From a virus, in IMG/VR virus record IMGVR_UViG_3300025896_000028: DNA of 64,000 bases; one strand, given 5' to 3'. This document shows positions 14 to 30,977 of this stretch, piece by piece (position 1 is the stretch's first letter; every line of letters begins with the position of its first letter). A program made the translations under genes and the position numbers. The notes beneath the pieces are model-generated. The model saw only the letters and a program-made list of their open reading frames with translations, did not search any database and had not been told where the DNA came from.

Positions 14-1057
14 TTGCTTCAAGTTTGGTATCCGATTACCGTTGCTTCACTTTCTAGAGAAGTAAGAAAAATCGTTACTGCCGCATTCGTAAAAGGAACA
101 GCGTATGATGCTGGTCTTATCGACTTTCTAGTTGATTTCGTATTGAATGACTTCGGTTTCCGTGGTGTATCAAGTGTACAATCAGCTAAGATTGGTGGTT
201 CTGCTCACTTGGTGAACTTTAGAGGTTCAGATACCGTAGTAGCATCAAAATTAATCCGTGACCTTTATAACACAGAAACTGTGTATGGTTTATCAATCCC
301 AGCAACAGAGCACTCAATCATGACCCTAAACGGTGAAGAAGGTGAGTTAGCACTTATGATGCGTGTATTGAAAACTTATCCTACTGGATTGGTTGCGTGT
401 GTATCAGATTCATTTAACATATTCAGAGCGTGTTCTAAATATTGGGGAACTGATTTGAAAGAATTAGTTTTATCAAGACCAGCGACTCCAGGAAATCAAT
501 TGGTTATACGCCCAGATTCTGGTGATGTATTGATGACCTTAAAAGAAATCTTCAACATCTTATTCGATAAATTTGGTTACACAACCAATGAAAAAGGTTA
601 CAAGGTATTGCCACCACAAGTACGTGTTATTCAAGGTGATGGTGTGAACTTGGATTCAATCAAAGAAATCTACGCAATGTTAGATGAATTGAAAATCTCT
701 CCAGAGAACTTAGCGTTGGGTATGGGTGGTAAATTGCTACAAGCAGATATCAACAGAGATACGCAAAACTTCGCAACCAAAGCGTGTTATGCGATTGTTA
801 ATGGTGAAGAAAGAAATATCGTTAAGTCACCAACCGAAATGGATGCTGATGGTAACATTACAAAATCATTCAAAAAATCTAAACAAGGAAAACTTAAATT
901 GGTTAAGAATGACGATGGTACATACAGAACCGTTACATCAATGGATGCTGACTTTGATTCAGTAACAGATGAATTGATTGAAGTGTTTAGAAGTGGTGAA
1001 ATCCTTGTTGATTACACATTCGAAGAAATTAGAGAAAGAGCAAAAATAACAATTTAA
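14..1057 (+). CDS. Nicotinamide phosphoribosyltransferase (NAMPT/NadV)-like, 5'-truncated at window edge (could also be a Namat-type nicotinamide-ADPR transferase)
   Basis: ORF runs to the window start (track start is TTG at 14). C-terminal NAMPT-family sequence (..GMGGKLLQ.., ..VKSPTEMDADGN..). Confidence 0.8.
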   Translation: MLQVWYPITVASLSREVRKIVTAAFVKGTAYDAGLIDFLVDFVLNDFGFRGVSSVQSAKIGGSAHLVNFRGSDTVVASKLIRDLYNTETVYGLSIPATEHSIMTLNGEEGELALMMRVLKTYPTGLVACVSDSFNIFRACSKYWGTDLKELVLSRPATPGNQLVIRPDSGDVLMTLKEIFNILFDKFGYTTNEKGYKVLPPQVRVIQGDGVNLDSIKEIYAMLDELKISPENLALGMGGKLLQADINRDTQNFATKACYAIVNGEERNIVKSPTEMDADGNITKSFKKSKQGKLKLVKNDDGTYRTVTSMDADFDSVTDELIEVFRSGEILVDYTFEEIRERAKITI

Positions 1058-1069
1058 AAAAAGAAAAAC

Positions 1070-1675
1070 ATGTTAACATTATTAGCAAGTGCGACATTCA
1101 TACTATGGTTTAGTATTATCGCAGCGTTGGTGATTATTATATCACTAGAATTACAATCAGAAGGAACTGCGACAACAGCTTTTAGCTTAGCAATCGCATT
1201 ATTAATTTGGAACTACGGTGGTATTGCATGGGCCTTTATGACCGCCAACATACTCGTAACCGTTTTATTTATCGTAGGATATTTGGTATGTGGGGTTGTA
1301 TGGTCATTCTTAAAATGGAATGAGTTTGTAAAATCAGTATATCGAAAATTTAAAGCCACAAACGATAAGTTTGGTGCGTTAAAAAATCCAAATGATATCA
1401 TTAATTTATGTGAAAGATTAAGACTAGTTGGTATTAGTGTTTATGGTAGTGATGTTAAAACAATATCAGATATCGCAAGTAAAATCATGCCAAAAGGTTT
1501 AGATAACAAAGCATCGATTGTAGCTTGGATTTCATACTGGCCTTTATCATTATTGGGTACGTTATTAAATAACCCATTCCGAAGATTATTTGAATACACT
1601 TATAGTCTTGTATCTGGCTTGTATGACAAAATTAGTGCAAACCATAAAGCTAACGCACTTAAAAACTTAGAATAA
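1070..1675 (+). CDS. membrane protein (multiple TM helices)
   Basis: Hydrophobic segments at N-terminus and mid-protein; tightly packed after the NAMPT-like gene. Confidence 0.55.
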   Translation: MLTLLASATFILWFSIIAALVIIISLELQSEGTATTAFSLAIALLIWNYGGIAWAFMTANILVTVLFIVGYLVCGVVWSFLKWNEFVKSVYRKFKATNDKFGALKNPNDIINLCERLRLVGISVYGSDVKTISDIASKIMPKGLDNKASIVAWISYWPLSLLGTLLNNPFRRLFEYTYSLVSGLYDKISANHKANALKNLE

Positions 1676-2064
1676 TGGGGATGAGAGCTAAATTTGCTGT
1701 ATTGATTGAAACTAATCAGTACGCTGGGAACTTTGAAAGAGAAATGTGTGCACATCTAACTGGTCACGTTGGTGATTGCGAAGTTGGTGACGAATTAATC
1801 GATGAAACTGTTGCAGAATTTTTCGATGATGTTATCGGAAATGAAGCTGATGATAATGGTACGTATAGACCAGTAGCGTTGGGTAACGATATCGATGGTG
1901 GTACCAATCAAGGTGTTGTGATTTTCTTTGATGAAGAACCAACACAGGAACACTTGGATATGATAAAAGAAAGACTTGGAACTTTCACATATACCAAAGG
2001 GTTAGAAATAAAAAGTGTGGAATTGATTGAATTTCATAGAAGCACGACTAAAAAAACTATTTAA
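1675..2064 (+). CDS. hypothetical protein, acidic
   Basis: Start overlaps upstream stop (ATGA-type coupling); no recognisable motif. Confidence 0.5.
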   Translation: MGMRAKFAVLIETNQYAGNFEREMCAHLTGHVGDCEVGDELIDETVAEFFDDVIGNEADDNGTYRPVALGNDIDGGTNQGVVIFFDEEPTQEHLDMIKERLGTFTYTKGLEIKSVELIEFHRSTTKKTI

Positions 2065-2065
2065 A

Positions 2066-2569
2066 ATGAAAAATACAAACGAAAAAACAACTGACGAATT
2101 CGTATTCTTTTGGAATGGAATCTACAGTCAGTGGTATTCGTCTAAGTTCAGCATTGCTGGAATCGAATATAATTGCTGTGAGCAATACATGATGGCGATG
2201 AAAGCATTGACATTCAACGACCAAGAGAGTCATGATGCTATCATGGCTGCCGCTAGACCAGTTGACCAAAAATCTTTGGGTCGTACAGTTAAAAACTTTA
2301 ACACAGACAAATGGAATGAAGTGTGTCGAGAATTTGTTTACCAAGGTAACTTGGCTAAATTCACACAAAATCCTAGTCTAAAGGTTGAGTTATTGAAAAC
2401 TGATGACAAAGAAATTGTTGAGGCTAGTCCATACGACAAGATTTGGGGTATTGGAATGGGTGTTGACCACAGAAACATCGAAGATAAAAGCAAATGGCAA
2501 GGAAAAAACTGGTTAGGTGAAGCCATTATGCGAGTAAGAGAAACTTTTAAAAAACAAGAAAATGATTAG
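2066..2569 (+). CDS. NADAR (YbiA/DUF1768) domain protein
   Basis: FFWNGIYSQWY..FSIAGIEYNCCEQYMMAMKA..ASPYDKIWGIGMG matches the NADAR family. Start re-set to the ATG at ~2066 (track starts at 2027). Confidence 0.7.
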   Translation: MKNTNEKTTDEFVFFWNGIYSQWYSSKFSIAGIEYNCCEQYMMAMKALTFNDQESHDAIMAAARPVDQKSLGRTVKNFNTDKWNEVCREFVYQGNLAKFTQNPSLKVELLKTDDKEIVEASPYDKIWGIGMGVDHRNIEDKSKWQGKNWLGEAIMRVRETFKKQEND

Positions 2570-3011
2570 ATATATCGATGGTGACCTAGTAAAGGATGCC
2601 GAAAATTACGAAGTAATTGCACATTGTTGCAACTGTTTTTGCACTATGGGTGCTGGTATTGCCCCGCAAATCAAACATAAATTCCCAGATGCTTACGCTG
2701 CTGACTGCAAGACAGTTCAAGGGGACATTAACAAGCTAGGTACTATTTCATATAGTGAAGCTACAAAACCGATTGTTGTTAACTTGTATGGCCAATATGA
2801 CTATACTGGAAGACGAAGTGGTCAGATGGATTTAGACTATGAAGCTTTACGTTCTGCGTTGAAGTTGATGAAAGCTAAATTCTCTGGTAAAACATTTGGT
2901 TTACCTAAGATTGGTGCTGGGTTAGCTGGTGGTGATTGGGCTACAATTGAAGCAATCATTGACGAAGAACTTCGTGGTGAGTATGTTACGATTGTAAACT
3001 ATGTACCGTAA
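2562..3011 (+). CDS. macro domain (ADP-ribose binding/processing) protein
   Basis: CNCFCTMGAGIAPQIK..VVNLYGQ.. pattern typical of MacroD/Appr-1-p processing domains; overlaps the upstream gene end. Confidence 0.7.
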   Translation: MIRYIDGDLVKDAENYEVIAHCCNCFCTMGAGIAPQIKHKFPDAYAADCKTVQGDINKLGTISYSEATKPIVVNLYGQYDYTGRRSGQMDLDYEALRSALKLMKAKFSGKTFGLPKIGAGLAGGDWATIEAIIDEELRGEYVTIVNYVP

Positions 3012-3787
3012 TGCACTACATAATACAACAAAATGTATTTAGAGAAACTAACTATGACATCATATTTGAAGCCTTAACCAAATTAGGTTTAGAGTATGAA
3101 GTCATAGAATGTTTACCTAACTCTGATAAGTTTGAATTTGTGACTGATAGAAAAGATGTATTTACATTCGGCTCTATTAGAATGGCTAAACTAGCAACTG
3201 AAAACGGTTGGGAACCTGGTTCTTTCTTTGGTGGAAACCACGATTACTCAATATACTCCGAACACTACAAAGAAAACTTATTGAACTACGATTGTGAAAT
3301 CAAAGAGTTTGAAGAAGAATTTGAATGGAACTACGGTGAAATAAAATTCATAAGACCATGCAAGGATTCAAAGTTGTTTACAGGACAAGTATTTACCAAA
3401 ACCAAATGGGATGATATGCTTGAGCAACGTAAACAAAATATAAACTACACCAAATTAACGGAACCACAACTAATTCAAATCGGTATACCGAAAACCATAT
3501 ACAAAGAAGCCAGAACGTGGATTGTTGATGGAAAGATTGTAACCAGTTCTTATTATCGTTTTGGTCAGTATGTTGCTTACGAAGAAAACGTTGAACCAGA
3601 GGGCTTAGAATTCGCTCAGAGAATGGTTGACTTGTATCAAGTTGCTGAGTGTTTTGTGATGGACATTTGCCTAACACCAGATGGTTGGAAGATAGTTGAA
3701 ATCAATTGCATTAATTGTTCTGGTTTTTACAAGGGTGACATGCAAAAGGTTTTGATAGCTTTGGAGAATAAATACAACCCAATATAA
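3011..3787 (+). CDS. ATP-grasp fold protein (phage DUF4343/R2K-like)
   Basis: C-terminal RTWIVDGKIV..YRF..FVMDICLTPDGWKIVEINCINCSGFY resembles ATP-grasp ligases common in phage NAD/ADP-ribose neighbourhoods. Confidence 0.55.
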   Translation: MHYIIQQNVFRETNYDIIFEALTKLGLEYEVIECLPNSDKFEFVTDRKDVFTFGSIRMAKLATENGWEPGSFFGGNHDYSIYSEHYKENLLNYDCEIKEFEEEFEWNYGEIKFIRPCKDSKLFTGQVFTKTKWDDMLEQRKQNINYTKLTEPQLIQIGIPKTIYKEARTWIVDGKIVTSSYYRFGQYVAYEENVEPEGLEFAQRMVDLYQVAECFVMDICLTPDGWKIVEINCINCSGFYKGDMQKVLIALENKYNPI

Positions 3788-3862
3788 TATTTTAGGTTTC
3801 TCTTGCTTTTTAATAAAAGTATTAGTACCTTTGTTAAATAACAATTTATAAAATTAACATTA

Positions 3863-4042
3863 ATGAATGAGCTTGTTAAAGTAGGTGTTGCCAACGAAGG
3901 TGAACAAACATTTCCACTAAGTGTCGTAAAAGAATGGCAACCAACTAACCTAACATATATTGGAAGTGCGGTATTCTTCAAAGTAGAAGATACATATTTT
4001 TCAATGAACACTTTAGATTTTAGAAACATTTTTGAATCATAA
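3863..4042 (+). CDS. small hypothetical protein (59 aa, below ORF-track cutoff)
   Basis: ATG about 30 nt downstream of a TAccTTTG promoter motif at ~3831; plus-strand ORF MNELVKVGVANEGEQ.. fills the gap. The minus-strand ORF 3727..4029 in the track is judged spurious. Confidence 0.4.
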   Translation: MNELVKVGVANEGEQTFPLSVVKEWQPTNLTYIGSAVFFKVEDTYFSMNTLDFRNIFES

Positions 4043-4044
4043 CT

Positions 4045-4488
4045 ATGAGTATAATTAAATCGATTCTAACGAATCACTTCGAGTACAAGATTACTAGAAA
4101 CTGGGACCGAACATTTTGGGCTTTTGATATTCATGGTACAATTCTTAAACCAAACTATACATTTGGTAGTACGCCAGATGAATTTTATCCAATGGCAAAA
4201 CAAACATTACAGTTCATCAGTCAACGACCAGACATTGTAATGTTCCTTTATACCTGTTCACACCCTAACGAGGTTGATGAGTATTTGGAATTGTTCAAAA
4301 AGAATGACATTCATTTTAAGTATGTGAATGAGAACCCAGAGGTTCCGACACAAACTAATGGATATGGATGTTACGATAAAAAACCTTACATGAATGTTTT
4401 GTTTGAGGACAAAGCTGGATTTGACCCAGAGAACGATTGGGGTTTGGTTTTAAATTTATTAACCGCTAACTATAATGGCAAGGATTAG
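4045..4488 (+). CDS. hypothetical protein
   Basis: ORF in operon context; no recognisable motif. Confidence 0.5.
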   Translation: MSIIKSILTNHFEYKITRNWDRTFWAFDIHGTILKPNYTFGSTPDEFYPMAKQTLQFISQRPDIVMFLYTCSHPNEVDEYLELFKKNDIHFKYVNENPEVPTQTNGYGCYDKKPYMNVLFEDKAGFDPENDWGLVLNLLTANYNGKD

Positions 4489-4837
4489 TGATTTATTAAC
4501 GTACAACTCAAATAAATTTGATAACATGAAGATTAAAACTGCTTCCGATGAAACAGTTTTATTATCTAGTAGTGAAGTCAAAGAAATTCTAACCAAATAT
4601 CTAAACGATGAGTTAGACTTTTTCGCAAAAGGTATCACAAAAGAAACGAAATCAGCGTTGACTGAAAGAGTTAACTTTAGACTTAAACAAATTGAAAGTA
4701 GCCTTGTTAGACATGTTGATGATAAAATAAACGGTATAACGGAAAAAATAGTTTCTTTGTCTACGAATAGAGTTATTGAGGAAGAAGTAAACAGACGGGT
4801 TGAGGCTCGTTTGAAAAAAATAAAAGATTCACTTTAA
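4475..4837 (+). CDS. hypothetical coiled-coil protein
   Basis: Overlapping start; charged heptad-like sequence. Confidence 0.5.
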   Translation: MARISDLLTYNSNKFDNMKIKTASDETVLLSSSEVKEILTKYLNDELDFFAKGITKETKSALTERVNFRLKQIESSLVRHVDDKINGITEKIVSLSTNRVIEEEVNRRVEARLKKIKDSL

Positions 4838-4847
4838 AAGTAAAAAT

Positions 4848-5147
4848 ATGAAAACAAAATTATTCATGACAGTATTTGTGCTGTTATTATTGACTGGATG
4901 TGCTGATGTGGCACATATACAATTCCTTGACCCTAACCAAGAAATCTATGGTTTCTGGGGTGGTGTTTGGCACGGTATGATTATGTTCCCAGCATTTATC
5001 TGTAGTCTTTTCTCAGATAACATTGCTATCTACGCTATAAACAATAACGGTTTCTGGTATAACTTCGGTTATGTTGGTGGGTTAGGTATTATAATCAAGG
5101 GTATCAAAATCTTTTTTGCTGGTTTAAGAAGTTTAAACAATAGATAA
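4848..5147 (+). CDS. small membrane/lipoprotein
   Basis: Signal peptide with lipobox-like LLLLTGC; hydrophobic segments. Confidence 0.5.
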   Translation: MKTKLFMTVFVLLLLTGCADVAHIQFLDPNQEIYGFWGGVWHGMIMFPAFICSLFSDNIAIYAINNNGFWYNFGYVGGLGIIIKGIKIFFAGLRSLNNR

Positions 5148-5905
5148 TGAAAAAGAAAATCGTAATTTTTAGTGGTGCTGGTTTAGATAGAGAGTCGGGT
5201 GTATTAACATTCCGTGACTGTAAAGATGGCCTTTGGAATAACCACAAAATCGAAGATGTTGCTACACCAGAAGGATGGGCTAAAGACCGAAGTAAAGTTC
5301 TAGATTTTTATAATGAAAGAAGAAGACAAATGCCAGAAGTTGTACCTAATGATGCACATATTGGTTTAGTTGAATTAGAAAAAGAATTTGATGTAATACA
5401 CGTTACACAGAATGTAAGTGACTTATTGGAAAGAGCTGGGGCGACAAACATTATTCACTTGCATGGTGAGTTGACCAAAGCTAGAACAAGCTTCGCAATG
5501 AATAACCCTAATGTTGTTGCATCACAACACGTATATGATATTGGTTATGATGATATTAATTTGGGTGATTTAGATGCAGAATATGAATCTCAATTAAGAC
5601 CACATATTGTATGGTTTAGTGAATATCCATTTGGGGTTGATAAAGCAAATCAAGCATTTAGAGATGCTGATGTTGTTTTGATTATAGGTACAAGTCTTCA
5701 AATTAGTTATACCATTGGATTTTTTGGGTTAACAAAATTAGAGACTCCTATTATCTATATTGACCCAGAACCAAGTCATGACTTGGATTATACTTATCGA
5801 GAATTAAAAGTTGAATATATAACCAAGACAGCAGTTGAAGGTGTAACACAAGTAGTAAATAGATTATTAACACAAGCAATCGGAGACGATAAAAACGACA
5901 AATAA
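5147..5905 (+). CDS. Sir2-family protein lacking zinc-binding cysteines (SirTM-like)
   Basis: N-terminal VIFSGAGLDRESGVLTFRD Rossmann motif of sirtuins; no CxxC..CxxC module. Confidence 0.7.
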   Translation: MKKKIVIFSGAGLDRESGVLTFRDCKDGLWNNHKIEDVATPEGWAKDRSKVLDFYNERRRQMPEVVPNDAHIGLVELEKEFDVIHVTQNVSDLLERAGATNIIHLHGELTKARTSFAMNNPNVVASQHVYDIGYDDINLGDLDAEYESQLRPHIVWFSEYPFGVDKANQAFRDADVVLIIGTSLQISYTIGFFGLTKLETPIIYIDPEPSHDLDYTYRELKVEYITKTAVEGVTQVVNRLLTQAIGDDKNDK

Positions 5906-5906
5906 G

Positions 5907-6260
5907 ATGCATTATTTTGTAGAAGGAACAATTAGACACATTGGTGAAGTACAGACATTTGGTGATAAATTCAAAAAAAGAGAATTTATCCTTGAAACTG
6001 ATGAAGCTTACCCAGAAAAATTAAAGTTAGATTTCATTAATGACAATGTAGATGCCTTGGATACCTTTATGGTAAACGAAGTTGTTACAGTTGCGTTTGT
6101 GGTTAAGGGTAGTGAATATCAAGGTAAGCACTACACCAATTTACGAGCAATAGCAATTTGTGAAGTTATTGACGAAAGAGCAGCAAAAGAATTCGCTAAA
6201 GCGAAAAAAGATAACAAAAGAGTTCAGCAATTGCTTGACTCCGTTAAAGTGAAAAAATAA
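5907..6260 (+). CDS. DUF3127 family protein
   Basis: GEVQTFGDKFKKREFILETDEAYPEKLKLDF..VAFVVKGSEYQGKHYTNLRA matches the Bacteroidota DUF3127 pattern. Confidence 0.6.
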   Translation: MHYFVEGTIRHIGEVQTFGDKFKKREFILETDEAYPEKLKLDFINDNVDALDTFMVNEVVTVAFVVKGSEYQGKHYTNLRAIAICEVIDERAAKEFAKAKKDNKRVQQLLDSVKVKK

Positions 6261-6535
6261 TGAAAAAAATAATATCTATCCTAATTTTAGGGTTATTTAT
6301 ATCTTGCAATAAGCCAAGTGATAAATATGTAGATTCACCAACACGTTTTGTAATTACTGGAATGCAAGGTGATAATAGTTTACAGCAAATGTCAATTTAT
6401 GAAGTAGAAGTAATTGATGGTAATTACTTTTCACATAGAGATGGGAACAACTTATCTTTTAGGTTTACAGATTCAGTTAACAAATTTAAGTTAGGTGATA
6501 TTATTAATTTCGAAAGAAAAAACATCATAGAATAA
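6260..6535 (+). CDS. lipoprotein
   Basis: Signal peptide ILILGLFISC (lipobox). Confidence 0.5.
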   Translation: MKKIISILILGLFISCNKPSDKYVDSPTRFVITGMQGDNSLQQMSIYEVEVIDGNYFSHRDGNNLSFRFTDSVNKFKLGDIINFERKNIIE

Positions 6536-6891
6536 TGAGTGTATTAAAATTAGAGTTAAAAGAAGAACACGTAAAATTACTTAAACATTTACGTTGGAGT
6601 CTTAACCCTCAAAATTTCATTGTTGGAGTTTCTGAGGAAGATGAACCAGCACCATTTGGTGAGAATAACATATATGAGGCAATTGACCTTATTCTTAATG
6701 GTGTCCCAAAGGAATTCGACCCGTTTAACACTGAAGAAATTCCTCAGTATTCTGATGAACAAAAAGCTGAGTGGGATAAATTATATTCTGAATTGCCGAT
6801 GGCATTGGATATTATTTTATATCGAGGTAGCTTTGAGTTAGGTAATTATAAAACTAAATTCCACGATAGAGTGTGGAAAAAAACAAACTAA
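6535..6891 (+). CDS. hypothetical protein
   Basis: ORF in operon context; no recognisable motif. Confidence 0.5.
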   Translation: MSVLKLELKEEHVKLLKHLRWSLNPQNFIVGVSEEDEPAPFGENNIYEAIDLILNGVPKEFDPFNTEEIPQYSDEQKAEWDKLYSELPMALDIILYRGSFELGNYKTKFHDRVWKKTN

Positions 6892-7221
6892 AATGAAAAC
6901 ATTAAAATTAATTGGTTATTTTCTAGCGGCATTGCTAGTGTTATTTATCATCAAAGGTATGTTCTTTGGAATATTCCTATTCACTATTGTATTGAAATAC
7001 ATACTGATAGCTGCTGTCGTTGCTGGAGTTCTTTATTTGTTTAATCGAAAAGGTAATAAATAGTAAATGATTTTTCTTTATTATTTTCTTGGGTTGATAG
7101 TCTTTATACATGTTGTAAGAGGACTATCTTATGCAATACATAAGATTATCTTATTCAACAAATATTTAAAGAAAGTTAAAAGAGAACTAGTAAATTATTT
7201 CAAAAAACATAAATAAATATT

Positions 7222-7251
7222 TGTTTATTCAAAATTTTTTATGTACCTTTG
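7222..7251 (+). promoter_or_regulatory. Bacteroidota-type sigma-A promoter (TTTG-N20-TACCTTTG)
   Basis: tttgtttattcaaaattttttatgTACCTTTG lies 16 nt upstream of the ATG at 7268. Confidence 0.6.
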
Positions 7252-7267
7252 TTAAAAATAAATAACT

Positions 7268-8260
7268 ATGAATGATTCAGTATTAGTAGCATTAGATGGT
7301 AGAGAAGATTTAGCGAATAACGTTATTGATTTTATCAATAACAATTCAAAGATAAAAGAGAAAGTAAAGCTAGACATAATCAACAGTCAGAAATTTTCTG
7401 ATGGTGAGTTATGTGTGGATTTCGAAACATCAATTAGAGGCAAGCGAGTATATATTCTATCTAGTCCTAACAATTCAGATGAAATCATAAAGTTAAACCT
7501 AGCGATAGATGCCGCCAAACGTGCAGCTGCTAGAGAGATTATTCCAATCTTACCTTATTTTCCATACGCTCGTCAAGACAAGAAAGACCAATCACGTGGA
7601 CCTATCGGTGCCAAGGTTATGGTTGAAATGATTGAGCATCGTGGAGCAACAGGTGTTATCACATTTGATTTACATGCTGACCAAATCCAAGGGTTTTTCA
7701 ATATCCCAGTTACACACTTAGAAGGTAAAAACGTATTTGATTCATACATCGCTTCGATATATGATGAAGACACTATTCTTTGTGGACCAGATGCTGGTTC
7801 TGGTAAACGTGTTAAACGTATGAAAGACCAATTATCTAACTACCACGACATTTCAATCAATTATGTAATGTTGGATAAGACTCGTAAACAAGCCAACGTT
7901 ATTGACGATATGGTAATCATTGGTGATGTTAGTGGTAAGAACGTAATCATCTTGGATGATATGGTTGATACTGCTGGAACACTTTGCAAAGCCGCTGAAG
8001 TTATTATGGAAGCTGGTGCTAAAAGTGTAAGAGCAATCATTAGTCATGGTATCTGTTCTGGTCCAGCTTTGGCTCGTATTGAAAATTCAGTTCTAACTGA
8101 ATTGGTTATTAGTGATTCCTTAAGAAAACCAACAGATTACAATGGTATCTTTGGTAATGATAAAATCAACGTGATTAGCATGTCAAAACAAATAGGTTTA
8201 GCTGTTAGTGCTATCAATAGTAAAACAAGCTACGAAGGACTTAAAAAAGAAAGATTCTAA
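7268..8260 (+). CDS. ribose-phosphate pyrophosphokinase (PRPP synthetase) homolog; possibly an ADP-ribose pyrophosphokinase (Adps-type)
   Basis: KFSDGE, DLHADQIQGFFNIPV and PRPP-binding loop VIILDDMVDTAGT are Prs-family hallmarks. Confidence 0.85.
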   Translation: MNDSVLVALDGREDLANNVIDFINNNSKIKEKVKLDIINSQKFSDGELCVDFETSIRGKRVYILSSPNNSDEIIKLNLAIDAAKRAAAREIIPILPYFPYARQDKKDQSRGPIGAKVMVEMIEHRGATGVITFDLHADQIQGFFNIPVTHLEGKNVFDSYIASIYDEDTILCGPDAGSGKRVKRMKDQLSNYHDISINYVMLDKTRKQANVIDDMVIIGDVSGKNVIILDDMVDTAGTLCKAAEVIMEAGAKSVRAIISHGICSGPALARIENSVLTELVISDSLRKPTDYNGIFGNDKINVISMSKQIGLAVSAINSKTSYEGLKKERF

Positions 8261-8451: not shown

Positions 8452-9095
8452 TGGAAAAAGGATATAAAATACTTCAGAAAGCTTTTGACACAGAATTCTT
8501 AGACTTTTTTAGTAGAGATTTTGAAACAGTTGCTTTGCAATGTAAAGACGAAAATGTTTTTAGAACCAAGAATGGTGATGTAAAACAAATACAGAATTGC
8601 CAAGGGTATCATTTGTTTATGCGTTTAGCTAAACACATAAAAAAAGTCTTGGGTTATGATGGTGAAGTTATTAACATGCAGTATTTTATCAAACATCCAG
8701 ATTACAAGATAACAGCCCCACATCAAGACGGTGCGTACTTTGACAACAATGATGATGATATTTTAACCTTTTGGATTCCTTTGCATGATGTTGATGTTTC
8801 GACTTCAACTATGTTCTATGCTGATTGGGATGGCAAACGAGAAATAATCAACCATGAAAATTGTGGTTCAAATGTAAGAACTAGAACTGGTAAGACTGGT
8901 ATGTCACAATATACATCCGAAATTCCATTGGAAGACTTTACACCAGTAAAGTTGAAGTATGGTGATTGTGTTGTCCATAATCAATTCTCAGTTCATTATT
9001 CAAACGAAAATTCAACAACAAAACCAAGAATAGCAATTACATGCATTCTTAAACTAAACAAAAATGGAGAATCCAAATTACCCACACAGATTTAG
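8445..9095 (+). CDS. 2OG-Fe(II)/phytanoyl-CoA dioxygenase-like oxygenase
   Basis: HQDGAYFD (HxD) and a downstream His in a jelly-roll-like context. Confidence 0.5.
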   Translation: MVMEKGYKILQKAFDTEFLDFFSRDFETVALQCKDENVFRTKNGDVKQIQNCQGYHLFMRLAKHIKKVLGYDGEVINMQYFIKHPDYKITAPHQDGAYFDNNDDDILTFWIPLHDVDVSTSTMFYADWDGKREIINHENCGSNVRTRTGKTGMSQYTSEIPLEDFTPVKLKYGDCVVHNQFSVHYSNENSTTKPRIAITCILKLNKNGESKLPTQI

Positions 9096-9318
9096 CTTCA
9101 CGTATTCCGACAACAATAGAAATCCTATTCAATGTACTGTACTATGTAAAGAAAAACCTAATTATATTGATTTGGAAGACTTGATTTACGTTAAGTTTAA
9201 TCATTACATAACTGAAAACAAATCAGTTAAAATTTCAAAAAACAACATTATTAAGTTTCTGAATAACAATGGTATAGAGTGTGTTAATAGAGCTTATTAC
9301 AAATCTAATAAAAAATAA
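9064..9318 (+). CDS. hypothetical protein
   Basis: ORF in operon context; no recognisable motif. Confidence 0.4.
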   Translation: MENPNYPHRFSFTYSDNNRNPIQCTVLCKEKPNYIDLEDLIYVKFNHYITENKSVKISKNNIIKFLNNNGIECVNRAYYKSNKK

Positions 9319-9319
9319 C

Positions 9320-10090
9320 ATGGGATTATCTTTAGGAGATAGAATGAAAGAATTCTACGAAAACAGAACAAAAACTTTTTTGAATAGAAGAACCATTACC
9401 ATCATTAGACTTGATGGGAAAGGATTCTCTAAATTCACTAAAAATTTAAACAAACCATTCGATGATGGATTCAGTGATGACATGGATGCAACAGCAATCT
9501 TTTTATGTGAGAACATTCAAGGTGCCAAGTTTGCTTATACACAATCTGACGAAATTAGCGTGGTGTTGTGCGACTATGATACACTTGAAACAAGTGCATG
9601 GTTCGACTATAGCGTACAAAAGATGACAAGTATTGCAGCCTCTTTGGCAACTGCTAAGTTCAACCAATTAAGACATTTAAGGTCAACAATGCAAGGTATG
9701 GAAGGGTTAGCTGAAAGCTTAAACAAACTAGCTTTCTTTGATGCTCGTGTATTCCAAGTTCCTACTGTTGATGAAATGGTTAACGCAATGATTTTCAGAC
9801 AGCAAGACTGTACTAGAAATAGTATTAGTATGGCAGCATCTGCTAACTTCTCTCACAAACTATTAGAGGGTAAATCTGGTAGTGATAAACAGGAAATGTT
9901 ATTTAACGAGAAGGGTATCAATTGGAATGACTATAAAACCAAGTATAAACGTGGTGTAGTTATCAAAAGAGTAGCTGATATAGACTATAGTGGTGAAGCA
10001 GCTGCTGTTAGACGTAACTGGGTACCATTAGAAACACCTATATTCACTAGTGATAGGGATTTTCTAATAAATCTTATGCCTAAATTGTAA
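9320..10090 (+). CDS. tRNA-His guanylyltransferase (Thg1)-like 3'-5' nucleotidyltransferase (TLP)
   Basis: IIRLDGKGFSKFT, YTQSDEISVVL and RQQDCTRNSI match Thg1/TLP catalytic motifs. Start set to the ATG at 9320 (track begins at 9281, overlapping the upstream gene). Confidence 0.8.
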   Translation: MGLSLGDRMKEFYENRTKTFLNRRTITIIRLDGKGFSKFTKNLNKPFDDGFSDDMDATAIFLCENIQGAKFAYTQSDEISVVLCDYDTLETSAWFDYSVQKMTSIAASLATAKFNQLRHLRSTMQGMEGLAESLNKLAFFDARVFQVPTVDEMVNAMIFRQQDCTRNSISMAASANFSHKLLEGKSGSDKQEMLFNEKGINWNDYKTKYKRGVVIKRVADIDYSGEAAAVRRNWVPLETPIFTSDRDFLINLMPKL

Positions 10091-10167
10091 ATAATTAGGT
10101 ATGAATGTTGCAAATATACAATTAAATTCGTATTTTTGTATAAAATAACAAGTTTTAAAATAATAAA

Positions 10168-11748
10168 ATGGATTTTAAAGAATTAACTACAGAACAAATT
10201 GACTATGCTAGGGGTATTTATCAAGATAAAACTTTATCATGGGATGATAGAATGAATATTTTGGTTAAATTCTTTGGTAAATCAGAAAGAACAGTAAGAA
10301 AATGGTGTTCAGAACGATTAAATTTCAAAGAAAAGACTGAAATCGAACCAGAACAGTACGTAAAAGCTAAAGCTAAGGTACATGATGGTACTAAAAAACG
10401 ATTTATCATCACTTGGGCACAGAATAACACACCAGTACATAAGGGTTTCCTTAAGAATATTGAAGCTTATGCTGAATATATCAATGCGGATGTCCACGTA
10501 ATTGCTGGTAGGTATAAAAACCCAACTAGTATATGGTCAAATGACCAAGAAAATGAAGAATTTTGGGCTGATGAAGTAGTAAAATACCTAGATGCCAATA
10601 GACATGACATACATAAGTATGTTTCTATCCTATCAGATATCAAGATACAAGCTACTGCGGTTAATCCTATGACTGGGTTACAAGCATTGAGTGGTGTTAA
10701 TTCATCTATCTTCGGTAGTCCAAAGGTACAAATGGAAATGATTCCAGTACTAGAGGGTAATAAGCCTAAGATTATGCTTACCACTGGTTCTATTACCAAG
10801 AAAAACTATACTGATTCTAAATCTGGTAAGACTGGTGAGTTTCACCACACGTTTGGGTTTGTTATTGTTGAAATCAAAGATGATGAAACATTCTTTGTTA
10901 GACAAGTAACTGCCGATGATAAAACAGGTAACTTTAGTGATTTATATTACAGAGTTGAAGGTGGTTCTATTAGTGGTTTAAACACTATAGCTGCTGCTGT
11001 TCTAGGTGATATTCACTACGGACACCATGACCAAGAAGTTCTTGATTCAACTATGGGATTGTTAGATTCATTAAAACCAAAACACGTGATTCTTCATGAT
11101 GTTTTTGATGGAAATTCTATCAGTCATCACGAAATGAAAGACCCTTTTATTCAATATGGTAAAGAAGTTGCTGGAACCAACGACTTGGGTAAAGAGATTG
11201 ATTTGATGTTAGATGGATTGGGTGCATTCGCTAAGTTCGATAACGTTGTGATTGTTAGAAGTAACCATGATGATTTCTTAGACCGTTGGTTAAAGAATGA
11301 AGATTGGAAGAAACAACCAACATACAAGAACTCAAGACTTTACATGAAAATGTCTGATATGTTGTTGGAACAATATGGCAATGACCCTTACAATGTGAAA
11401 GGTGTTATTCCATGTATCATAAACGAGAAATTCCCTAAGTTCATTACTCTTGGTAGAAGTGCCACATATAGAGTTAAAGATTGGGAGCTTGGACAACATG
11501 GTGATATTGGTTCAAACGGTAGCCGTGGTTCATTGTTACAATTCCGTAAATTGAACACCAAGATTATCGTAGGTCACTACCATAGTCCAGGAAGAAAAGA
11601 CGGAGCATTGGCAGTGGGAACATCAACCAAGTTAAGAGTTGGTTATAACAAAGGGGCCAGCACATGGTTACAATCACACGTGATTATCCATAACGATGGA
11701 AGGTCACAACACATAAACTTCATTAACGGAGAGTTTACAACATTTTAA
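10168..11748 (+). CDS. calcineurin-like metallophosphoesterase with long N-terminal extension
   Basis: Metallophosphoesterase motifs GDIHYGHHD, LHDVFDG, VRSNHDDF and GHYHSP. No Walker A motif. Confidence 0.7.
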   Translation: MDFKELTTEQIDYARGIYQDKTLSWDDRMNILVKFFGKSERTVRKWCSERLNFKEKTEIEPEQYVKAKAKVHDGTKKRFIITWAQNNTPVHKGFLKNIEAYAEYINADVHVIAGRYKNPTSIWSNDQENEEFWADEVVKYLDANRHDIHKYVSILSDIKIQATAVNPMTGLQALSGVNSSIFGSPKVQMEMIPVLEGNKPKIMLTTGSITKKNYTDSKSGKTGEFHHTFGFVIVEIKDDETFFVRQVTADDKTGNFSDLYYRVEGGSISGLNTIAAAVLGDIHYGHHDQEVLDSTMGLLDSLKPKHVILHDVFDGNSISHHEMKDPFIQYGKEVAGTNDLGKEIDLMLDGLGAFAKFDNVVIVRSNHDDFLDRWLKNEDWKKQPTYKNSRLYMKMSDMLLEQYGNDPYNVKGVIPCIINEKFPKFITLGRSATYRVKDWELGQHGDIGSNGSRGSLLQFRKLNTKIIVGHYHSPGRKDGALAVGTSTKLRVGYNKGASTWLQSHVIIHNDGRSQHINFINGEFTTF

Positions 11749-11749
11749 T

Positions 11750-12175
11750 ATGGAAGATAATACAATTGAGATTAATGTGGATTTTGATGGAACGTGTGTA
11801 ACACATAGTTTCCCAGATGTGGGGTCAGACATAGGTTCTGTCCCCGTATTGAAAAGACTGACAGATAAAGGTCATAGACTTATTATCTTCACCATGAGAA
11901 GCAATCGACCATTTACCAAGTATGATGGTACGATTGACAATAATGGTTTGAATGATGTGGTTAAATGGTTCGCAGACAATGACATACCAGTTTATGGTAT
12001 TCAAACGAATCCGACCCAACACACATGGACTGAAAGTCCTAAAAGCTACGCACCATTAATGATTGATGATAGTGCTTTGGGTTGTCCTTTGAAGTATGAT
12101 TTAAGAATCTCACCCAGACCTTTTGTTGACTGGGGTAAGGTTGAGGAATGGTTAGAAAGTAGAGGTTTAATTTAA
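11750..12175 (+). CDS. HAD-superfamily phosphatase-like protein
   Basis: N-terminal DFDGT (DxDGT) motif. Confidence 0.5.
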   Translation: MEDNTIEINVDFDGTCVTHSFPDVGSDIGSVPVLKRLTDKGHRLIIFTMRSNRPFTKYDGTIDNNGLNDVVKWFADNDIPVYGIQTNPTQHTWTESPKSYAPLMIDDSALGCPLKYDLRISPRPFVDWGKVEEWLESRGLI

Positions 12176-12187
12176 AAATAAAAAACA

Positions 12188-12370
12188 ATGTACAAATTAT
12201 CGATTACTACACTTAAAGCTTTAAAGGCAGCTTTGGTAAACTCAAATGAAGTACTAACTGAATTGAGGGAAACAAATGATTTGCCATGGATATCTGGTGC
12301 AATCAAAAAAAACGAGGAACAAATTAGAATATTAACAGAACAATATTACATCGATGAAAGCACAAATTGA
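12188..12370 (+). CDS. small hypothetical protein
   Basis: ORF in operon context; no recognisable motif. Confidence 0.4.
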   Translation: MYKLSITTLKALKAALVNSNEVLTELRETNDLPWISGAIKKNEEQIRILTEQYYIDESTN

Positions 12371-12686
12371 TTTCTCTGAATTTTTAGAGATAGAAGGAAA
12401 ATTGGAAATTAAAATTGGTCGCATAACAGCATCTGAATCGGTACCAAAAAGCTATGGTATTAAATTAACCGTTGATTTCGGTAACGATGATGTTAGAACA
12501 GTTTTCACCAATTTAGGTAAAACATATAAACCAGAACAATTTATTGGTTTTGTAACACCATTCGTAACCAACTTGGCTCCAAGCGAAATCAAAGGTGTTT
12601 TGAGTCAAGCAATGATACTAGTTCCCCAAAACCTTAATGGTGATGATGAATGGTATGATTATTCAATAGGAACTAAATTATTATAA
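12354..12686 (+). CDS. tRNA-binding (CsaA/Trbp111/EMAP-like OB-fold) protein
   Basis: F.EF..L.L.IG.I..AE..P.SY..KL.VDFG......VF.....Y.PE.L.G pattern of the tRNA_bind domain. Confidence 0.6.
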   Translation: MKAQIDFSEFLEIEGKLEIKIGRITASESVPKSYGIKLTVDFGNDDVRTVFTNLGKTYKPEQFIGFVTPFVTNLAPSEIKGVLSQAMILVPQNLNGDDEWYDYSIGTKLL

Positions 12687-12687
12687 T

Positions 12688-12969
12688 ATGAAAAAGATTT
12701 ACAAATTTGAGGCCGATTTTGGTCGCATGGGAGAATTAGAAGGCGTATTCGTATCAACTGATGAAAAATTAGAAGCGTTATACGGAAAAGAAATTTATTT
12801 TGGTGAAGTGTTAGGTAAACATTCGGAAGTTATTTTAACACTAGATGTAGAACATATCACTGAAGTAACTGATGATGAAAAATTCATTGAACTTTTCGTA
12901 TTCTACAGGTTAGAAAATGGTTACAATCCTTTTGATTACTACGAAGAAGACGAAGAAGACGAAGAATAA
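12688..12969 (+). CDS. hypothetical protein with poly-acidic C-terminus
   Basis: Ends EEDEEDEE, encoded by a gaagaagac repeat. Confidence 0.45.
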   Translation: MKKIYKFEADFGRMGELEGVFVSTDEKLEALYGKEIYFGEVLGKHSEVILTLDVEHITEVTDDEKFIELFVFYRLENGYNPFDYYEEDEEDEE

Positions 12970-13421
12970 TGGCAAAGGTAATTGCAGCTGGTTTATTTAT
13001 CGTAAGAAAGGATAAAAAACTATTGATTTGTCATCCGACAAATCATGCCGAAGACTTTTACAGCATACCCAAGGGTAAGGTAGAGAAAGATGAAACTTTT
13101 TTAGAGGGTGCTTTTAGAGAAACCTATGAAGAAACTAATCTAAGTTTAAAAGATAGTAATAAATTTACTATTTACCCTTTGCAATCAGTCAACTATACAC
13201 ATAAAAGAAAGATACTATATCCTTTTTTATGTTTAGAGAACTTTGATTCAAAGATTGAATGGGGTGCTGTTGAGTTAAAGTGTAATTCCGATGTAGAAGA
13301 TGCTCGTGGTAACTTCCCAGAAATGGATGGTTATAAATGGGTAACACTAGAAGAAGCTAGACCACTGTTACATAACACACAGGCAGCTTGTATCGATAAG
13401 ATTTTACAAATAATTGGATAA
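12969..13421 (+). CDS. NUDIX hydrolase
   Basis: Nudix box GKVEKDETFLEGAFRETYEETNL. Confidence 0.75.
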   Translation: MAKVIAAGLFIVRKDKKLLICHPTNHAEDFYSIPKGKVEKDETFLEGAFRETYEETNLSLKDSNKFTIYPLQSVNYTHKRKILYPFLCLENFDSKIEWGAVELKCNSDVEDARGNFPEMDGYKWVTLEEARPLLHNTQAACIDKILQIIG

Positions 13422-13423
13422 TC

Positions 13424-13645
13424 ATGCAAATAGATTTACATGGGACTAAACATGAAGATGTAATAAGAAAGATTGACATGTTTATATGGGAGTGTATTCA
13501 AAACAACACATCTCAAGGAAAGATAATAACTGGGAATTCTCAGATTATGAAACAAATAGTTACAAGTTGTTTGGCTGAACATGGGTTAACACCTAACAAT
13601 TTATTAGCAAATAACAACGTGGGTAGCATTACCTTTGACTTATAA
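13424..13645 (+). CDS. Smr-domain protein (small MutS-related nuclease domain)
   Basis: MQIDLHG...GKIITG pattern of Smr. Confidence 0.6.
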   Translation: MQIDLHGTKHEDVIRKIDMFIWECIQNNTSQGKIITGNSQIMKQIVTSCLAEHGLTPNNLLANNNVGSITFDL

Positions 13646-13896
13646 TGTGGTATGTGTATATCTTAGAGTGTGCCGATAGTACGTTGTACACTGGGATAAC
13701 AACAGACATACAAAAACGCATTTTAACGCACAATAAAGGTAAAGGTGCAAAATATACCAAGACAAGATTACCAGTTGCTCTAAGGGCTTCATTTGAAGCC
13801 GTAGATAGAAGTAACGCAAGCAAAGAAGAATATAGAATCAAACAACTAACTAGAAAAGAAAAGTTAGAATTTATAAACAAATTAAACAACAAATAA
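13645..13896 (+). CDS. GIY-YIG nuclease-domain protein
   Basis: WYVYILECADSTLYTGITTDIQKRILTHN. Confidence 0.7.
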   Translation: MWYVYILECADSTLYTGITTDIQKRILTHNKGKGAKYTKTRLPVALRASFEAVDRSNASKEEYRIKQLTRKEKLEFINKLNNK

Positions 13897-15155
13897 TGGC
13901 AGAAGTGAAAAAAGTATGGAATGAGGATGACAACAGATTATACCCAGCGTATCCATCAAAGGAATTTGACAATTTAGAGAACGCAATCTATAACGTAGGT
14001 ATAGATGAGTATGGTCGTTTCTTTTTAACAAAAAGTAGTGATGGTTTTGTTTTCGACTATAAGATTTATGGTTTAGAAACTGAATTGGTTGAACGTGTAA
14101 TCAAAACCTACAACGCAACATCAAATGGAAACTTAGGTATTCTATTGAACGGGTTGAAAGGTACTGGGAAAACTGTTAGCTCGAAAATTATCGCTAGCAG
14201 ATTAAACCAACCAATTATCCTAGTGGATGCTGCAATCAAGGGAATTCATATCTTTTTAAATGGTATTTCTCAAAATATTACGATATTTATTGATGAGTAC
14301 GAAAAGGTATTTGGTGAATCTACGTCAATGCTAACAATCATGGACGGTGCGATGAATTCAGACCACAGACGAGTATTTTTATTAACTACAAATGAGTTGT
14401 ATGTTGATAGAAATCTTATCCAAAGACCTGGAAGAATTCGTTATCTTAAGAAATTTGAAGACCTTAAACCAGAAATTGTTGAGGAAATCGTTGACGATGT
14501 ATTGGTGCACAAACAATTCAAACAAGAATGTGTTCAATTCATTTCTAACTTGGAAACAATTACTGTTGATATTGTGAAAGCAGTTATTAATGAAGTAAAC
14601 ATCCACGAAGAAGGACCATCAGCATTTGAAAGTATCTTCAACGTTAAAAAATTGAAAGGGTCGTACAATATTTCTATCAAAGAAGAAGATGGAACAATGG
14701 CTCAATTGGCTAACAGCGTTAAGGTTTATCCAAGACCAACCTATGGTGATAACAATGTGAACTATAGATTTGAAATTGATGGTCAATCAATTGGTATGAT
14801 TACGAGAGTAATCGACTGGACTACAGTTGAAGTTTCACCATTTGATGGTGAGAAGGGTAAGAAATTAGGTTTCGATAAACCAATTATCTTAAAGGTTTCT
14901 GATGCTGATGTTGTTAACTATTCATACGCTTATGATGGGTACGGTAGTTCAATGATTGATAAACCTAGCAAAAGCATTTCTAAGTTTGCTAAAAACATCA
15001 TGAAAGCTGTTGATGAAGATGATGAAGATAGTGAGAACATCTTTGAAACTAAAGAAAAAACAGTTTCAAGACCAGTATCAGTAGGAAGTGTAATTCAAAC
15101 GCAATCAGAAGCATTTCCATGGGATGACCTTAATGATGAAGTAAGTGCTGGGTAA
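13896..15155 (+). CDS. AAA+ family ATPase
   Basis: Walker A LNGLKGTGKT, Walker B IFIDEYE, sensor LLTTN. Confidence 0.65.
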   Translation: MAEVKKVWNEDDNRLYPAYPSKEFDNLENAIYNVGIDEYGRFFLTKSSDGFVFDYKIYGLETELVERVIKTYNATSNGNLGILLNGLKGTGKTVSSKIIASRLNQPIILVDAAIKGIHIFLNGISQNITIFIDEYEKVFGESTSMLTIMDGAMNSDHRRVFLLTTNELYVDRNLIQRPGRIRYLKKFEDLKPEIVEEIVDDVLVHKQFKQECVQFISNLETITVDIVKAVINEVNIHEEGPSAFESIFNVKKLKGSYNISIKEEDGTMAQLANSVKVYPRPTYGDNNVNYRFEIDGQSIGMITRVIDWTTVEVSPFDGEKGKKLGFDKPIILKVSDADVVNYSYAYDGYGSSMIDKPSKSISKFAKNIMKAVDEDDEDSENIFETKEKTVSRPVSVGSVIQTQSEAFPWDDLNDEVSAG

Positions 15156-17378: not shown

Positions 17379-17407
17379 TTGACACTTATTTTTATTATGA
17401 CTATAAT
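17379..17407 (+). promoter_or_regulatory. perfect sigma-70 consensus TTGACA-N17-TATAAT
   Basis: ttgaca cttatttttattatgac tataat, 5 nt upstream of the ATG at ~17413. Unusual in a genome otherwise using TAnnTTTG promoters. Confidence 0.35.
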
Positions 17408-17412
17408 TGTAT

Positions 17413-17886
17413 ATGGAAAAATTCATATACGATTATTTGTCAAAAAATTATTACATTGATACTAGCGAAGTTGGTAACGATGGGATATACTCTATTTCCG
17501 ATGATAGGAAATTTAAAACACCGCATTGTGGTAAAAAGCTAACCAATGAGTTAATCACTGTATTTAACATTGCAGAAGAAGAAGCTAAGCTTTTTATCCA
17601 TCTTTGGTCTAGCAACATAAAACCAGATGTAGACTTAGAATTCTACTGGCAAACCCTAGAAACTTTATTTGAAAACGTAGCGTTTCCAATGGTTCGAAGA
17701 GTATTTGCACAAACCCTAGCTATGGATTTGGTACCAGTTGTACCATTGTCAATGCCTAATCTTGATTTGGTTTATTTGGATTTTCAATACAAAGAAGAAA
17801 CTTTGTATGAAAAGGTTAAAAATAAAATTATTGAAGTTATGGAGAATATTTATTATAGAATATTAGGATTATTCAAAAATAATTAA
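17413..17886 (+). CDS. hypothetical protein
   Basis: Track start at 17407 is a TTG; the ATG at ~17413 is preferred. Confidence 0.5.
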   Translation: MEKFIYDYLSKNYYIDTSEVGNDGIYSISDDRKFKTPHCGKKLTNELITVFNIAEEEAKLFIHLWSSNIKPDVDLEFYWQTLETLFENVAFPMVRRVFAQTLAMDLVPVVPLSMPNLDLVYLDFQYKEETLYEKVKNKIIEVMENIYYRILGLFKNN

Positions 17887-30880: not shown

Positions 30881-30977
30881 CAAAATTGGGGAATAGCAAC
30901 ATGAAGGTCGGCAAACTTTCAGACGGTTATAATCCTTTCTATCACGTTTAGCTTTGCCGAGCGACATGGTGATAGTT

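Follow-up and report, generated by a model that had tools for sequence, protein, structure and literature searches.

Thg1-like protein and T5 A1-family enzyme genes: probable neighbours rather than partners in an accessory gene array of an uncultured jumbo phage

Described systems and the gene block of the window

For jumbo phages, Iyer et al. 2021 (PMC7824862) described Thg1 as an RNA-repair enzyme that restores 5' ends, stand-alone SAK-type HADs as RNA 3'-phosphatases and the orthologs of T5 A1 as calcineurin-like phosphodiesterases, listed NAD+-salvage, Macro, NADAR and Nudix systems, and read this inventory as countermeasures to tRNA and NAD+ attack. Here we analyze a block of genes at 9.3-15.2 kb of the viral DNA stretch IMGVR_UViG_3300025896_000028 (64,000 nucleotides, hereafter the window), which opens with a gene for a Thg1-like protein (TLP), followed by one for a 526-aa metallophosphoesterase and by several small enzymes. 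The window carries the same inventory: Thg1, SAK-type HAD, Macro, NADAR, SIR2, Nudix, NAMPT and T5 A1 orthologs. An earlier note on this DNA had proposed that the block is an undescribed phage module for the repair of RNA 5' ends. "Undescribed" was overstated, because Thg1 repair, SAK-type HADs and A1 orthologs are already listed in PMC7824862, and for the same reason neither the components nor the idea of a TLP acting against tRNA attack is new. A term search of that paper found no mention of a Trbp111-like protein or of a BT0820-type HAD.

The usual core of the gene sets in PMC7824862 consists of ATP-grasp or RtcB RNA ligases together with polynucleotide kinase, none of which was detected in the window. 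The same difference separates the window from the heal-and-seal systems (Pnkp/Rnl, RtcB, Pnkp/Hen1), all of which have an RNA ligase, and from the Pnkp/Rnl1 pair of T4, with which a TLP shares the conceptual goal of restoring tRNAs cut by defence nucleases. Neither an RNA ligase nor a polynucleotide kinase appeared in the precomputed Pfam calls or in Pfam and PHROG scans of the unannotated neighbours, where divergent ligases may escape. The other described relative is A1 of phage T5, which is reported to be essential and both necessary and sufficient for degradation of the host chromosome in vivo (bioRxiv 10.64898/2026.04.02.716235).

The source of the window is an uncultured jumbo phage of ~233 kb, whose host is probably a member of the Bacteroidota. 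The contig IMGVR_UViG_3300033984_000473, of 232,931 bp, carries a TLP with 99% identity to that of the window. Megablast of the 9.3-15.2 kb block against cultured phages returned no near relative, and a PADLOC scan gave weak generic matches and nothing more. All the open reading frames (ORFs) reported before were found at their coordinates, on the plus strand and tightly packed, and most of the domain names given to them were correct according to the ORF check, Pfam, motifs and models. The block is a segment of a run of at least 60 kb of early/auxiliary genes, nearly all on one strand.

We consider it probable that these are independent accessory genes lying side by side in a jumbo-phage accessory array, and that they form no single machine. 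At least three pieces would be separable: the TLP, the T5 A1-family enzyme, and a variable cassette of small stand-alone enzymes (BT0820-type HAD, Trbp111-like tRNA binder, NUDIX, Smr, GIY-YIG and AAA) that would be gained and lost independently among related phages and to which neither sequence nor fold allows a substrate to be assigned. The neighbourhood would thus reflect a lineage that stacks accessory and counter-defence genes collinearly, and not a shared pathway. Adjacency carries little functional weight here, because the block is a stretch of such a long stack. The candidate new RNA-repair system is not upheld, which spares follow-up effort.

The T5 A1-family enzyme and the Thg1-like protein

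The 526-aa ORF had no Pfam match. It matched PHROG 1745 ("DNA transfer protein") with E=6.6e-151 over profile positions 53-540 of 542, and T5 A1 itself with 33% identity over 474 aa (BLASTP, E=2e-65, residues 77-523 against 96-554). The latter alignment spans the A1-specific middle region together with the catalytic domain, with every metal-binding motif in register. The metallophosphoesterase motifs are complete (GDIH 280, HDVFDG 310, SNHD 365, QHGD 443, GHYH 469) and invariant in 60 homologs. As judged from its sequence, the 526-aa enzyme is a member of the T5 A1 family; the previous description as a calcineurin-like phosphoesterase was right as to motifs and fold and missed this specific identity. 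A tblastn search with the protein retrieved 1132 phage records annotated as A1, A1-like or DNA transfer protein, among them T5-like phages, Caulobacter and Xanthomonas jumbo phages, and phages of Flavobacterium, Maribacter and Cellulophaga.

Since a sequence search against the PDB returned no match, a structure prediction was needed. The AlphaFold2 model, built with 60 homologs (pTM, the predicted template modelling score, 0.73), has a metallophosphoesterase fold whose best matches are the DNA nucleases PolD-DP1, SbcD and Mre11, a likeness that T5 A1 and the window A1 have in common. The two differ at the N-terminus, where the window A1 has ~75 additional residues that do not align to T5 A1; within them residues 1-50 form a confident three-helix, helix-turn-helix (HTH)-like bundle. 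In this model no kinase- or ligase-like extension, as considered in the earlier note, is evident.

By homology to T5 A1, the enzyme would be a DNA-directed nuclease that destroys the host chromosome, and this is the most likely role of the window A1. The enzyme is highly conserved across the lineage, being held at 72-95% identity in over 120 database clusters of environmental origin, and would open a tightly joined series of genes of its own. In the jumbo and Flavobacteriia phages inspected, A1 sits among replication or accessory genes. No A2 partner was identified, with no search aimed at A2. In this sense, a host-DNA-degradation factor described as mainly associated with Demerecviridae is now extended to an abundant environmental clade of jumbo phages, in which it is among the most conserved genes and bears an added HTH.

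Alternatively, the A1-like enzyme could be no DNase and act as a phosphodiesterase on signalling nucleotides of immunity, such as cyclic oligonucleotides. This was the prediction made for the jumbo-phage A1 orthologs in PMC7824862, and it would suit a gene in a counter-defence-rich region; the top fold matches are nevertheless DNA nucleases, the N-terminal HTH suggests binding of nucleic acid, and T5 A1 expressed alone destroys the chromosome, so we regard this function as unlikely.

The 5' end of the A1 gene is altered in L003, a 99%-identical relative, where a homing-endonuclease-like ORF of 299 aa with repeated Zn-ribbon-like motifs is inserted (8849-9938, corresponding to about 10168-10310 of the window). 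The insertion leaves a 55-aa remnant of the original N-terminus, and the A1 ORF starts anew with another, similar HTH N-terminus; the insertion therefore appears to carry its own substitute for the segment that it disrupted.

The gene that follows A1 encodes a HAD protein of 141 aa with no Pfam match. The HAD motifs I-IV (DxDGT, T48, K98, DD106-107) are present, with D11, D13, T15, T48, K98, D106 and D107 invariant or nearly so in 51 sequences, and the model (predicted local distance difference test, pLDDT, 89) has a sole significant structural match in Foldseek, the uncharacterised protein BT_0820 (2OBB; E=1.9e-7; template modelling score, TM, 0.65/0.75). The motifs thus indicate a catalytically intact capless phosphatase, and the HAD-like assignment made before is borne out by them and by the 2OBB-like model. 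The protein is a relative of BT0820 and no equivalog, with 48.3 bits against NF046079, below the curated equivalog cutoff of 165. Its fold belongs to the capless tier of GmhB, HisB-N and T4 Pnkp and shows no preference among these members: T4 Pnkp phosphatase (2IA5, 5UJ0) is matched with E=0.03-0.05 and TM ~0.4, no better than GmhB/HisB. The HAD cannot be assigned to end healing of the Pnkp type: the similarity to Pnkp is weak and non-specific, and the protein stands alone, with no kinase domain and no adjacent kinase, unlike T4 Pnkp/Rnl1. Among cultured phages, 172 records contain a member of this family (Ackermannviridae, crAss-like phages, Lak phages and phage PAU). Two other names attached to it were discarded: "polynucleotide kinase/phosphatase", used for a crAss homolog, is a loose label for a stand-alone protein among nucleotide-metabolism genes, and the PHROG label "phosphoheptose isomerase" probably derives from weak similarity to GmhB.

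A1 and the HAD could be parts of a pipeline of DNA degradation and nucleotide salvage analogous to T5 A1 plus Dmp, in which A1 degrades host DNA, the HAD and perhaps the NUDIX protein process the nucleotides, and an NDT-like enzyme and phosphoribosyl pyrophosphate (PRPP) synthase re-route bases and sugars to phage DNA synthesis. T5 A1 is a host-DNA degradation factor in the same operon as the deoxynucleoside monophosphate phosphatase Dmp, and the A1-HAD junction in the window is 1 nt. The HAD family lies among nucleotide-metabolism genes (phosphoribosyltransferase, ThyX) in crAss-like phages, the region holds an NDT-like gene (PF15891) and PRPP synthase, and in other phages A1 stands beside ribonucleotide reductase, DNA polymerase, primase and a MazG-like gene. 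Against this, the sequence of the HAD shows no relationship to T5 Dmp (E=0.67), as whose homolog it was rejected, no other homolog of Dmp being identified; its one significant structural match is uncharacterised; of the 73 related loci no more than 10 have it next to A1, and most lack it; and PRPP synthase fits the NAD+-salvage island upstream better. We hold such a pipeline to be possible though rather unlikely.

The TLP belongs to the 3'-5' nucleotidyltransferases. It scores above the Pfam gathering cutoffs (PF04446, 105.5 bits against 29.2; PF14413, 27.8 against 26.3), its PHROG (4717) is labelled "tRNA-His guanylyltransferase", and its closest solved structure is the TLP of Bacillus thuringiensis (BtTLP, 4KGK), the eukaryotic Thg1 proteins being far weaker matches (Candida 3WBZ, E=3.9e-13; human 3OTB, E=2.2e-9). 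Pfam, PHROG and 4KGK all agree with the confident call made before. The catalytic and NTP-positioning residues of BtTLP are E12, R28, D30, D75 and E76 (PMC3701042), and in the 4KGK alignment they correspond to E14, R30, D32, D77 and E78 of the window TLP, the last two within S76-D77-E78; all the conserved carboxylates (D32, D77, E78) are thus kept. The alignment indicates a TLP of the bacterial, tRNA-5'-repair type with a complete catalytic site which, by homology to BtTLP, would extend 5'-truncated tRNAs by templated 3'-5' addition.

Bacterial TLPs and the phage genes of PHROG 4717 have the same length of ~250 aa and full-length homology with the window TLP, which differs from them in its place at the end of an NAD-salvage island. 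Homologs with 30-50% identity occur in 163 cultured-phage records. A tie between TLPs and neighbouring tRNA or tRNA-His genes was considered and found no support: only ~11 of 60 TLP loci have a tRNA gene at a distance of up to 8 kb, and no tRNA-His was found in the window or near any of the 60. A 95-nt tRNA-like element with a 4-base anticodon (acaa) is found by ARAGORN ~225 nt upstream of the TLP start in three related contigs (L018 7682-7776, L019 677-771, L022 662-756).

Gene order in related phages and junctions within the block

We surveyed 66 IMG/VR loci around TLP genes, with 8-kb flanks, and 80 around A1 genes (63-98% identity), of which 71 had enough upstream sequence for the TLP count and 73 entered the HAD count. 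IMG/VR holds 404 stretches that match A1, and several contigs of 200-370 kb. A1 adjoins the TLP in all 13 loci of the window's clade and is near none of the other 53 TLP loci. Seen from A1, 18 of 71 loci have a TLP no more than 2.5 kb upstream; the HAD is the next gene in 10 of 73 and occurs at any place downstream in 23. The block is therefore not conserved as such, contrary to what a repair module would lead one to expect. About one in four close relatives has the TLP, which would thus be an accessory gene. The order A1, ORF o17910, HAD_SAK, RNase R is kept more widely among relatives than the block.

Individual loci display several kinds of rearrangement. In L091, L092 and L129 a PRPP-synthase gene directly adjoins A1 and leaves no space for a TLP; A1 leads almost directly into SAK-HAD and RNase R in L084-87, L103-104, L117 and L140; L098 has the complete downstream set without a TLP, and L110 and L113 a TLP without the downstream set; in L042 and L047 ~4 kb are inserted between A1 and the HAD. 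In L063 (8001-8303) and L153 (5542 onward), one member of the clade, ~105 N-terminal codons of the TLP are left just before A1, as would fit a TLP gene that is in the process of being lost where A1 is retained. The tRNA-binding genes of the window and of L003 (12131-12466) share only 51% identity, against 92-98% for the genes on either side, and L003 lacks the PHROG 5848 gene (12688-12969); window positions 12354-12969 look like a local cassette replacement. Cultured phages with both genes have them far apart (e.g., ~87 kb in CcrColossus). A proposed example of a TLP beside A1 in the pre-early region of T5-like Vibrio phages was rejected, as P018-4 has a TLP without A1 among its annotated neighbours.

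The junctions also separate the TLP from what follows. From A1 through the AAA gene they range from -17 to +12 nt, and the only sizeable gap of the block divides the TLP from A1. The motif TATTTTTG in this gap, of the Bacteroidota-type -7 element TAnnTTTG, stands 37 nt before the A1 start codon; another TAnnTTTG stands 24 nt upstream of the start codon of the PRPP-synthase-like gene, and no promoter-like TAnnTTTG motif was found between that gene and the TLP. On the coding strand the motif is 2.4-fold over-represented, with 82 occurrences against ~35 expected, for a consensus taken from the Bacteroidota as the assumed host phylum. We counted it because a scan for sigma-70 promoters (45 seen against 49.7 expected, no enrichment) is uninformative for a probable Bacteroidota host. 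Gap and motif suggest that the TLP closes one transcription unit and A1 opens the next. The PRPP-synthase-like gene is probably the first of the unit that ends with the TLP, a unit which would close the island of NAD+ salvage and ADP-ribose processing upstream (Table 1).

These data bear on the model of the earlier note, an integrated TLP-centred pathway that repairs RNA or tRNA 5' ends against defences cleaving the anticodon or the acceptor stem: NUDIX, metallophosphoesterase and HAD would produce 5'-monophosphates, the Trbp111-like protein would recruit the tRNA and the TLP would rebuild the end by reverse polymerisation. Parts of it stand, namely an intact TLP of the repair type, a tRNA-binding protein, and an RNA/translation theme in the wider region (SAK HAD, RNase R, IF3, SmpB). 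The order TLP, A1, HAD, tRNA_bind, NUDIX, Smr is also kept in ~9-13 loci of one clade, and mycobacteriophage Bombitas has a polynucleotide kinase two genes from its TLP. What does not stand is the joining of metallophosphoesterase, HAD and NUDIX to the TLP as one toolkit. The metallophosphoesterase is of the T5 A1 family, with a DNA-nuclease-like fold and an HTH; the block is a mosaic of independently gained and lost genes, outside the clade no TLP locus has A1, and a promoter-like motif lies in the gap that divides TLP from A1. Moreover, NUDIX and HAD are far below the curated RppH and BT0820 cutoffs, no kinase is attached, and tRNA genes are rare near TLPs. We consider such a pathway very improbable.

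Several observations weigh in the opposite direction, against a set of independent accessory genes with a DNA-directed A1. The A1 family may act on RNA or nucleotides, since the T5 preprint (bioRxiv 10.64898/2026.04.02.716235) notes that neither nuclease activity nor a biochemical substrate has yet been demonstrated in vitro. Within the clade, TLP-A1 adjacency persists down to 48% TLP identity, and genomics alone leaves room for a functional link between the two; the co-occurrence counts carry no phylogenetic correction, and many contigs are fragments. The promoter argument depends on a motif of few letters and on the phylum assumed for the host. In addition, tRNA_bind and Smr have plausible RNA connections, the best though weak NCBIfam matches of the NUDIX protein are RppH models, and the capless HAD has weak fold similarity to T4 Pnkp phosphatase.

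Table 1. Coordinates of the block and of neighbouring features in the window, with the matches on which each name is based
Feature	Position	Strand	Basis and remarks
NAD+/ADP-ribose island	14-8260		NAMPT to PRPS-like gene
NAMPT			partial, at window start
NADAR	2027-2569		
Macro	2562-3011		
R2K ATP-grasp	3011-3787		
SIR2	5147-5905		
PRPP-synthase-like (PRPS-like) gene	7268..8260	+	NCBIfam PRK01259 E=1e-89; Pfam Pribosyltran_N and Pribosyl_synth
TLP, 3'-5' nucleotidyltransferase family	9320..10090	+	Pfam Thg1 E=2.5e-30 and Thg1C; PHROG 4717 E=5e-80; PDB 4KGK E=3.6e-54
Intergenic gap, 77 nt, AT-rich	10091..10167	+	only sizeable gap in block; TAnnTTTG-type motif TATTTTTG at 10131-10138
A1-family metallophosphoesterase, 526 aa	10168..11748	+	N-terminal three-helix HTH-like (1-50), A1-specific middle, C-terminal Mre11/SbcD/DP1-like domain
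Stand-alone capless HAD phosphatase, BT0820 type, 141 aa	11750..12175	+	PHROG 1238 E=1e-27; NCBIfam NF046079 E=1.2e-12; PDB 2OBB
ORF, 60 aa	12188..12370	+	17-nt overlap with next gene; present in 3 related loci only
Trbp111/CsaA/MetRS-C-type tRNA-binding OB-fold protein	12354..12686	+	Pfam tRNA_bind E=4e-12; NCBIfam metG_C_term E=3e-15, CsaA E=4e-9
PHROG 5848 protein, 93 aa	12688..12969	+	E=2.6e-29; acidic C-terminal tail
Stand-alone NUDIX hydrolase	12969..13421	+	Pfam NUDIX E=9e-15; intact Nudix box
Minimal Smr-domain protein, 73 aa	13424..13645	+	Pfam Smr E=1.8e-7, above cutoff
Minimal GIY-YIG nuclease-domain protein, 83 aa	13645..13896	+	Pfam E=3.6e-17
AAA-family ATPase, PHROG 2376	13896..15155	+	Pfam AAA E=1.7e-7; PHROG 2376 E=1.8e-52
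SAK-type HAD (HAD_SAK_1), predicted RNA-repair 3'-phosphatase family	18296..18811	+	PF10307 E=1.7e-14, above cutoff; PHROG 415 "polynucleotide kinase" E=2.6e-4
RNase R	19406-21334		

The NAD+ island, the small genes and the wider neighbourhood

The island upstream of the TLP looks complete and could be an NAD+ reconstitution system of the NARP1 or NARP2 type, and its Macro protein could be a phosphatase like the reported aRES counter; as the aRES counter is a Macro-domain protein, the HAD and the metallophosphoesterase were set aside as candidates for that role. Just upstream of the window lie genes for a 327-aa NUDIX protein and YqeY.

No gene is found near phage TLPs more often than PRPP synthase: 25 of 66 loci have it at a distance of up to 5 kb, and 13 of these 25 are not of the window's clade. 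In another TLP group, of ~17 contigs, the order is PRPPs (PRPS-like), TLP, YqeY, NAMPT, NDT-like, HAD_SAK_2; TLPs lie beside NAD+-salvage genes in this order in L008, L012-L015, L018-L019, L022-L023, L025-L027, L031, L033, L044, L062 and L067. In L160, Bacillus phage FADO, NAMPT is 2.2 kb from the TLP. The partner of the TLP could thus be the NAD+/ADP-ribose island and not A1, either because the TLP restores RNA 5' ends after NAD-dependent damage or processing (ADP-ribosylation of 5'-phosphates, NAD caps, chemistry of the Tpt1 type) or because it is merely co-regulated with NAD+ reconstitution as a second countermeasure to abortive-infection effectors. In the window the TLP comes after NAMPT, NADAR, Macro, SIR2 and the PRPS-like gene, and the interval between the last of these and the TLP holds no promoter-like motif; bacterial operons join Tpt1/KptA with Thg1 (PMC8120803). 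On the other hand, most NAD-linked loci group in one super-clade of a rough TLP tree, so that shared ancestry (inherited synteny) explains most of the signal and leaves one or two independent recurrences; about half of the TLP loci have no NAD genes within 5 kb, and the TLPs of CBB, CcrColossus, Bombitas and P018-4 have other contexts. We regard this partnership as unlikely.

A broader claim, that phage TLPs in general are partners of NAD+/ADP-ribose islands and no stand-alone tRNA repair enzymes, is to our judgement still harder to credit and highly unlikely, including its variant in which the clade's A1-family nuclease has been recruited for RNA ends that feed the TLP. There, TLPs may rebuild 5' ends blocked or shortened by ADP-ribosylation, NAD-derived caps or trimming coupled to NAD depletion, and Macro, NADAR, NUDIX or HAD may clear the adduct before the TLP acts. 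The proximity of TLPs to NAD+-salvage genes was not found in the literature searched, and it is the remaining lead, suggestive and short of established. Together with the rarity of Trbp111-like proteins in cultured phages (15 matching records), it gives two modest leads that could inform experimental work on the protection of tRNA pools by large phages under abortive-infection responses.

Within the array of accessory genes that we favour, the small proteins downstream of the HAD keep the domain names given before: the tRNA-binding OB domain, NUDIX, Smr, GIY-YIG and AAA are all above Pfam thresholds. The tRNA_bind match reaches 46.5 bits against a Pfam cutoff of 27, and the CsaA and YgjH equivalog cutoffs are not reached. 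The NUDIX protein had been taken for an RppH-like generator of 5' ends, an assignment which is not possible: its best NCBIfam matches, to RppH models, reach 27.2 bits where the cutoff is 241, with NudC, MutT and further models following within about two orders of magnitude. The 60-aa ORF (12188..12370) has no match to a Pfam or PHROG family.

According to precomputed Pfam calls on the exact contigs, downstream of the block lie the NDT-like gene, IF3, the SAK-type HAD (two genes upstream of RNase R), RNase R, two more metallophosphoesterases, four tRNA-like genes, SmpB and a sigma factor. The tRNA-like genes, IF3, RNase R and SmpB, which the earlier note placed beside the block, are all in the window, 3-20 kb away from it. 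No tmRNA was found in the window, although SmpB is present. The four tRNA-like genes (30595-31255) include three atypical ones, only a tRNA-Gln (UUG) being standard, and none is a tRNA-His. Two of the atypical genes, each 99 nt in length, have additional sequence around the anticodon, and the intron mode of ARAGORN reports in them a 23-nt intron with anticodon UUA (given as "stop") and a 28-nt intron with Pro-GGG; the third has an abnormal anticodon loop.

Between IF3 and the ORF at 17407-17886 there is a perfect sigma-70 consensus (TTGACA, 17 nt, TATAAT; 17379-17407), the sole 12/12 match in the 10.7 kb scanned. This ORF and L071 7842-8627 (XacN1 ORF261, two genes downstream of the A1 homolog of XacN1) match only the first ~50 positions of the Pfam model of the T4 Gp23 major capsid protein, which may represent a shared short N-terminal motif and not a capsid fold.

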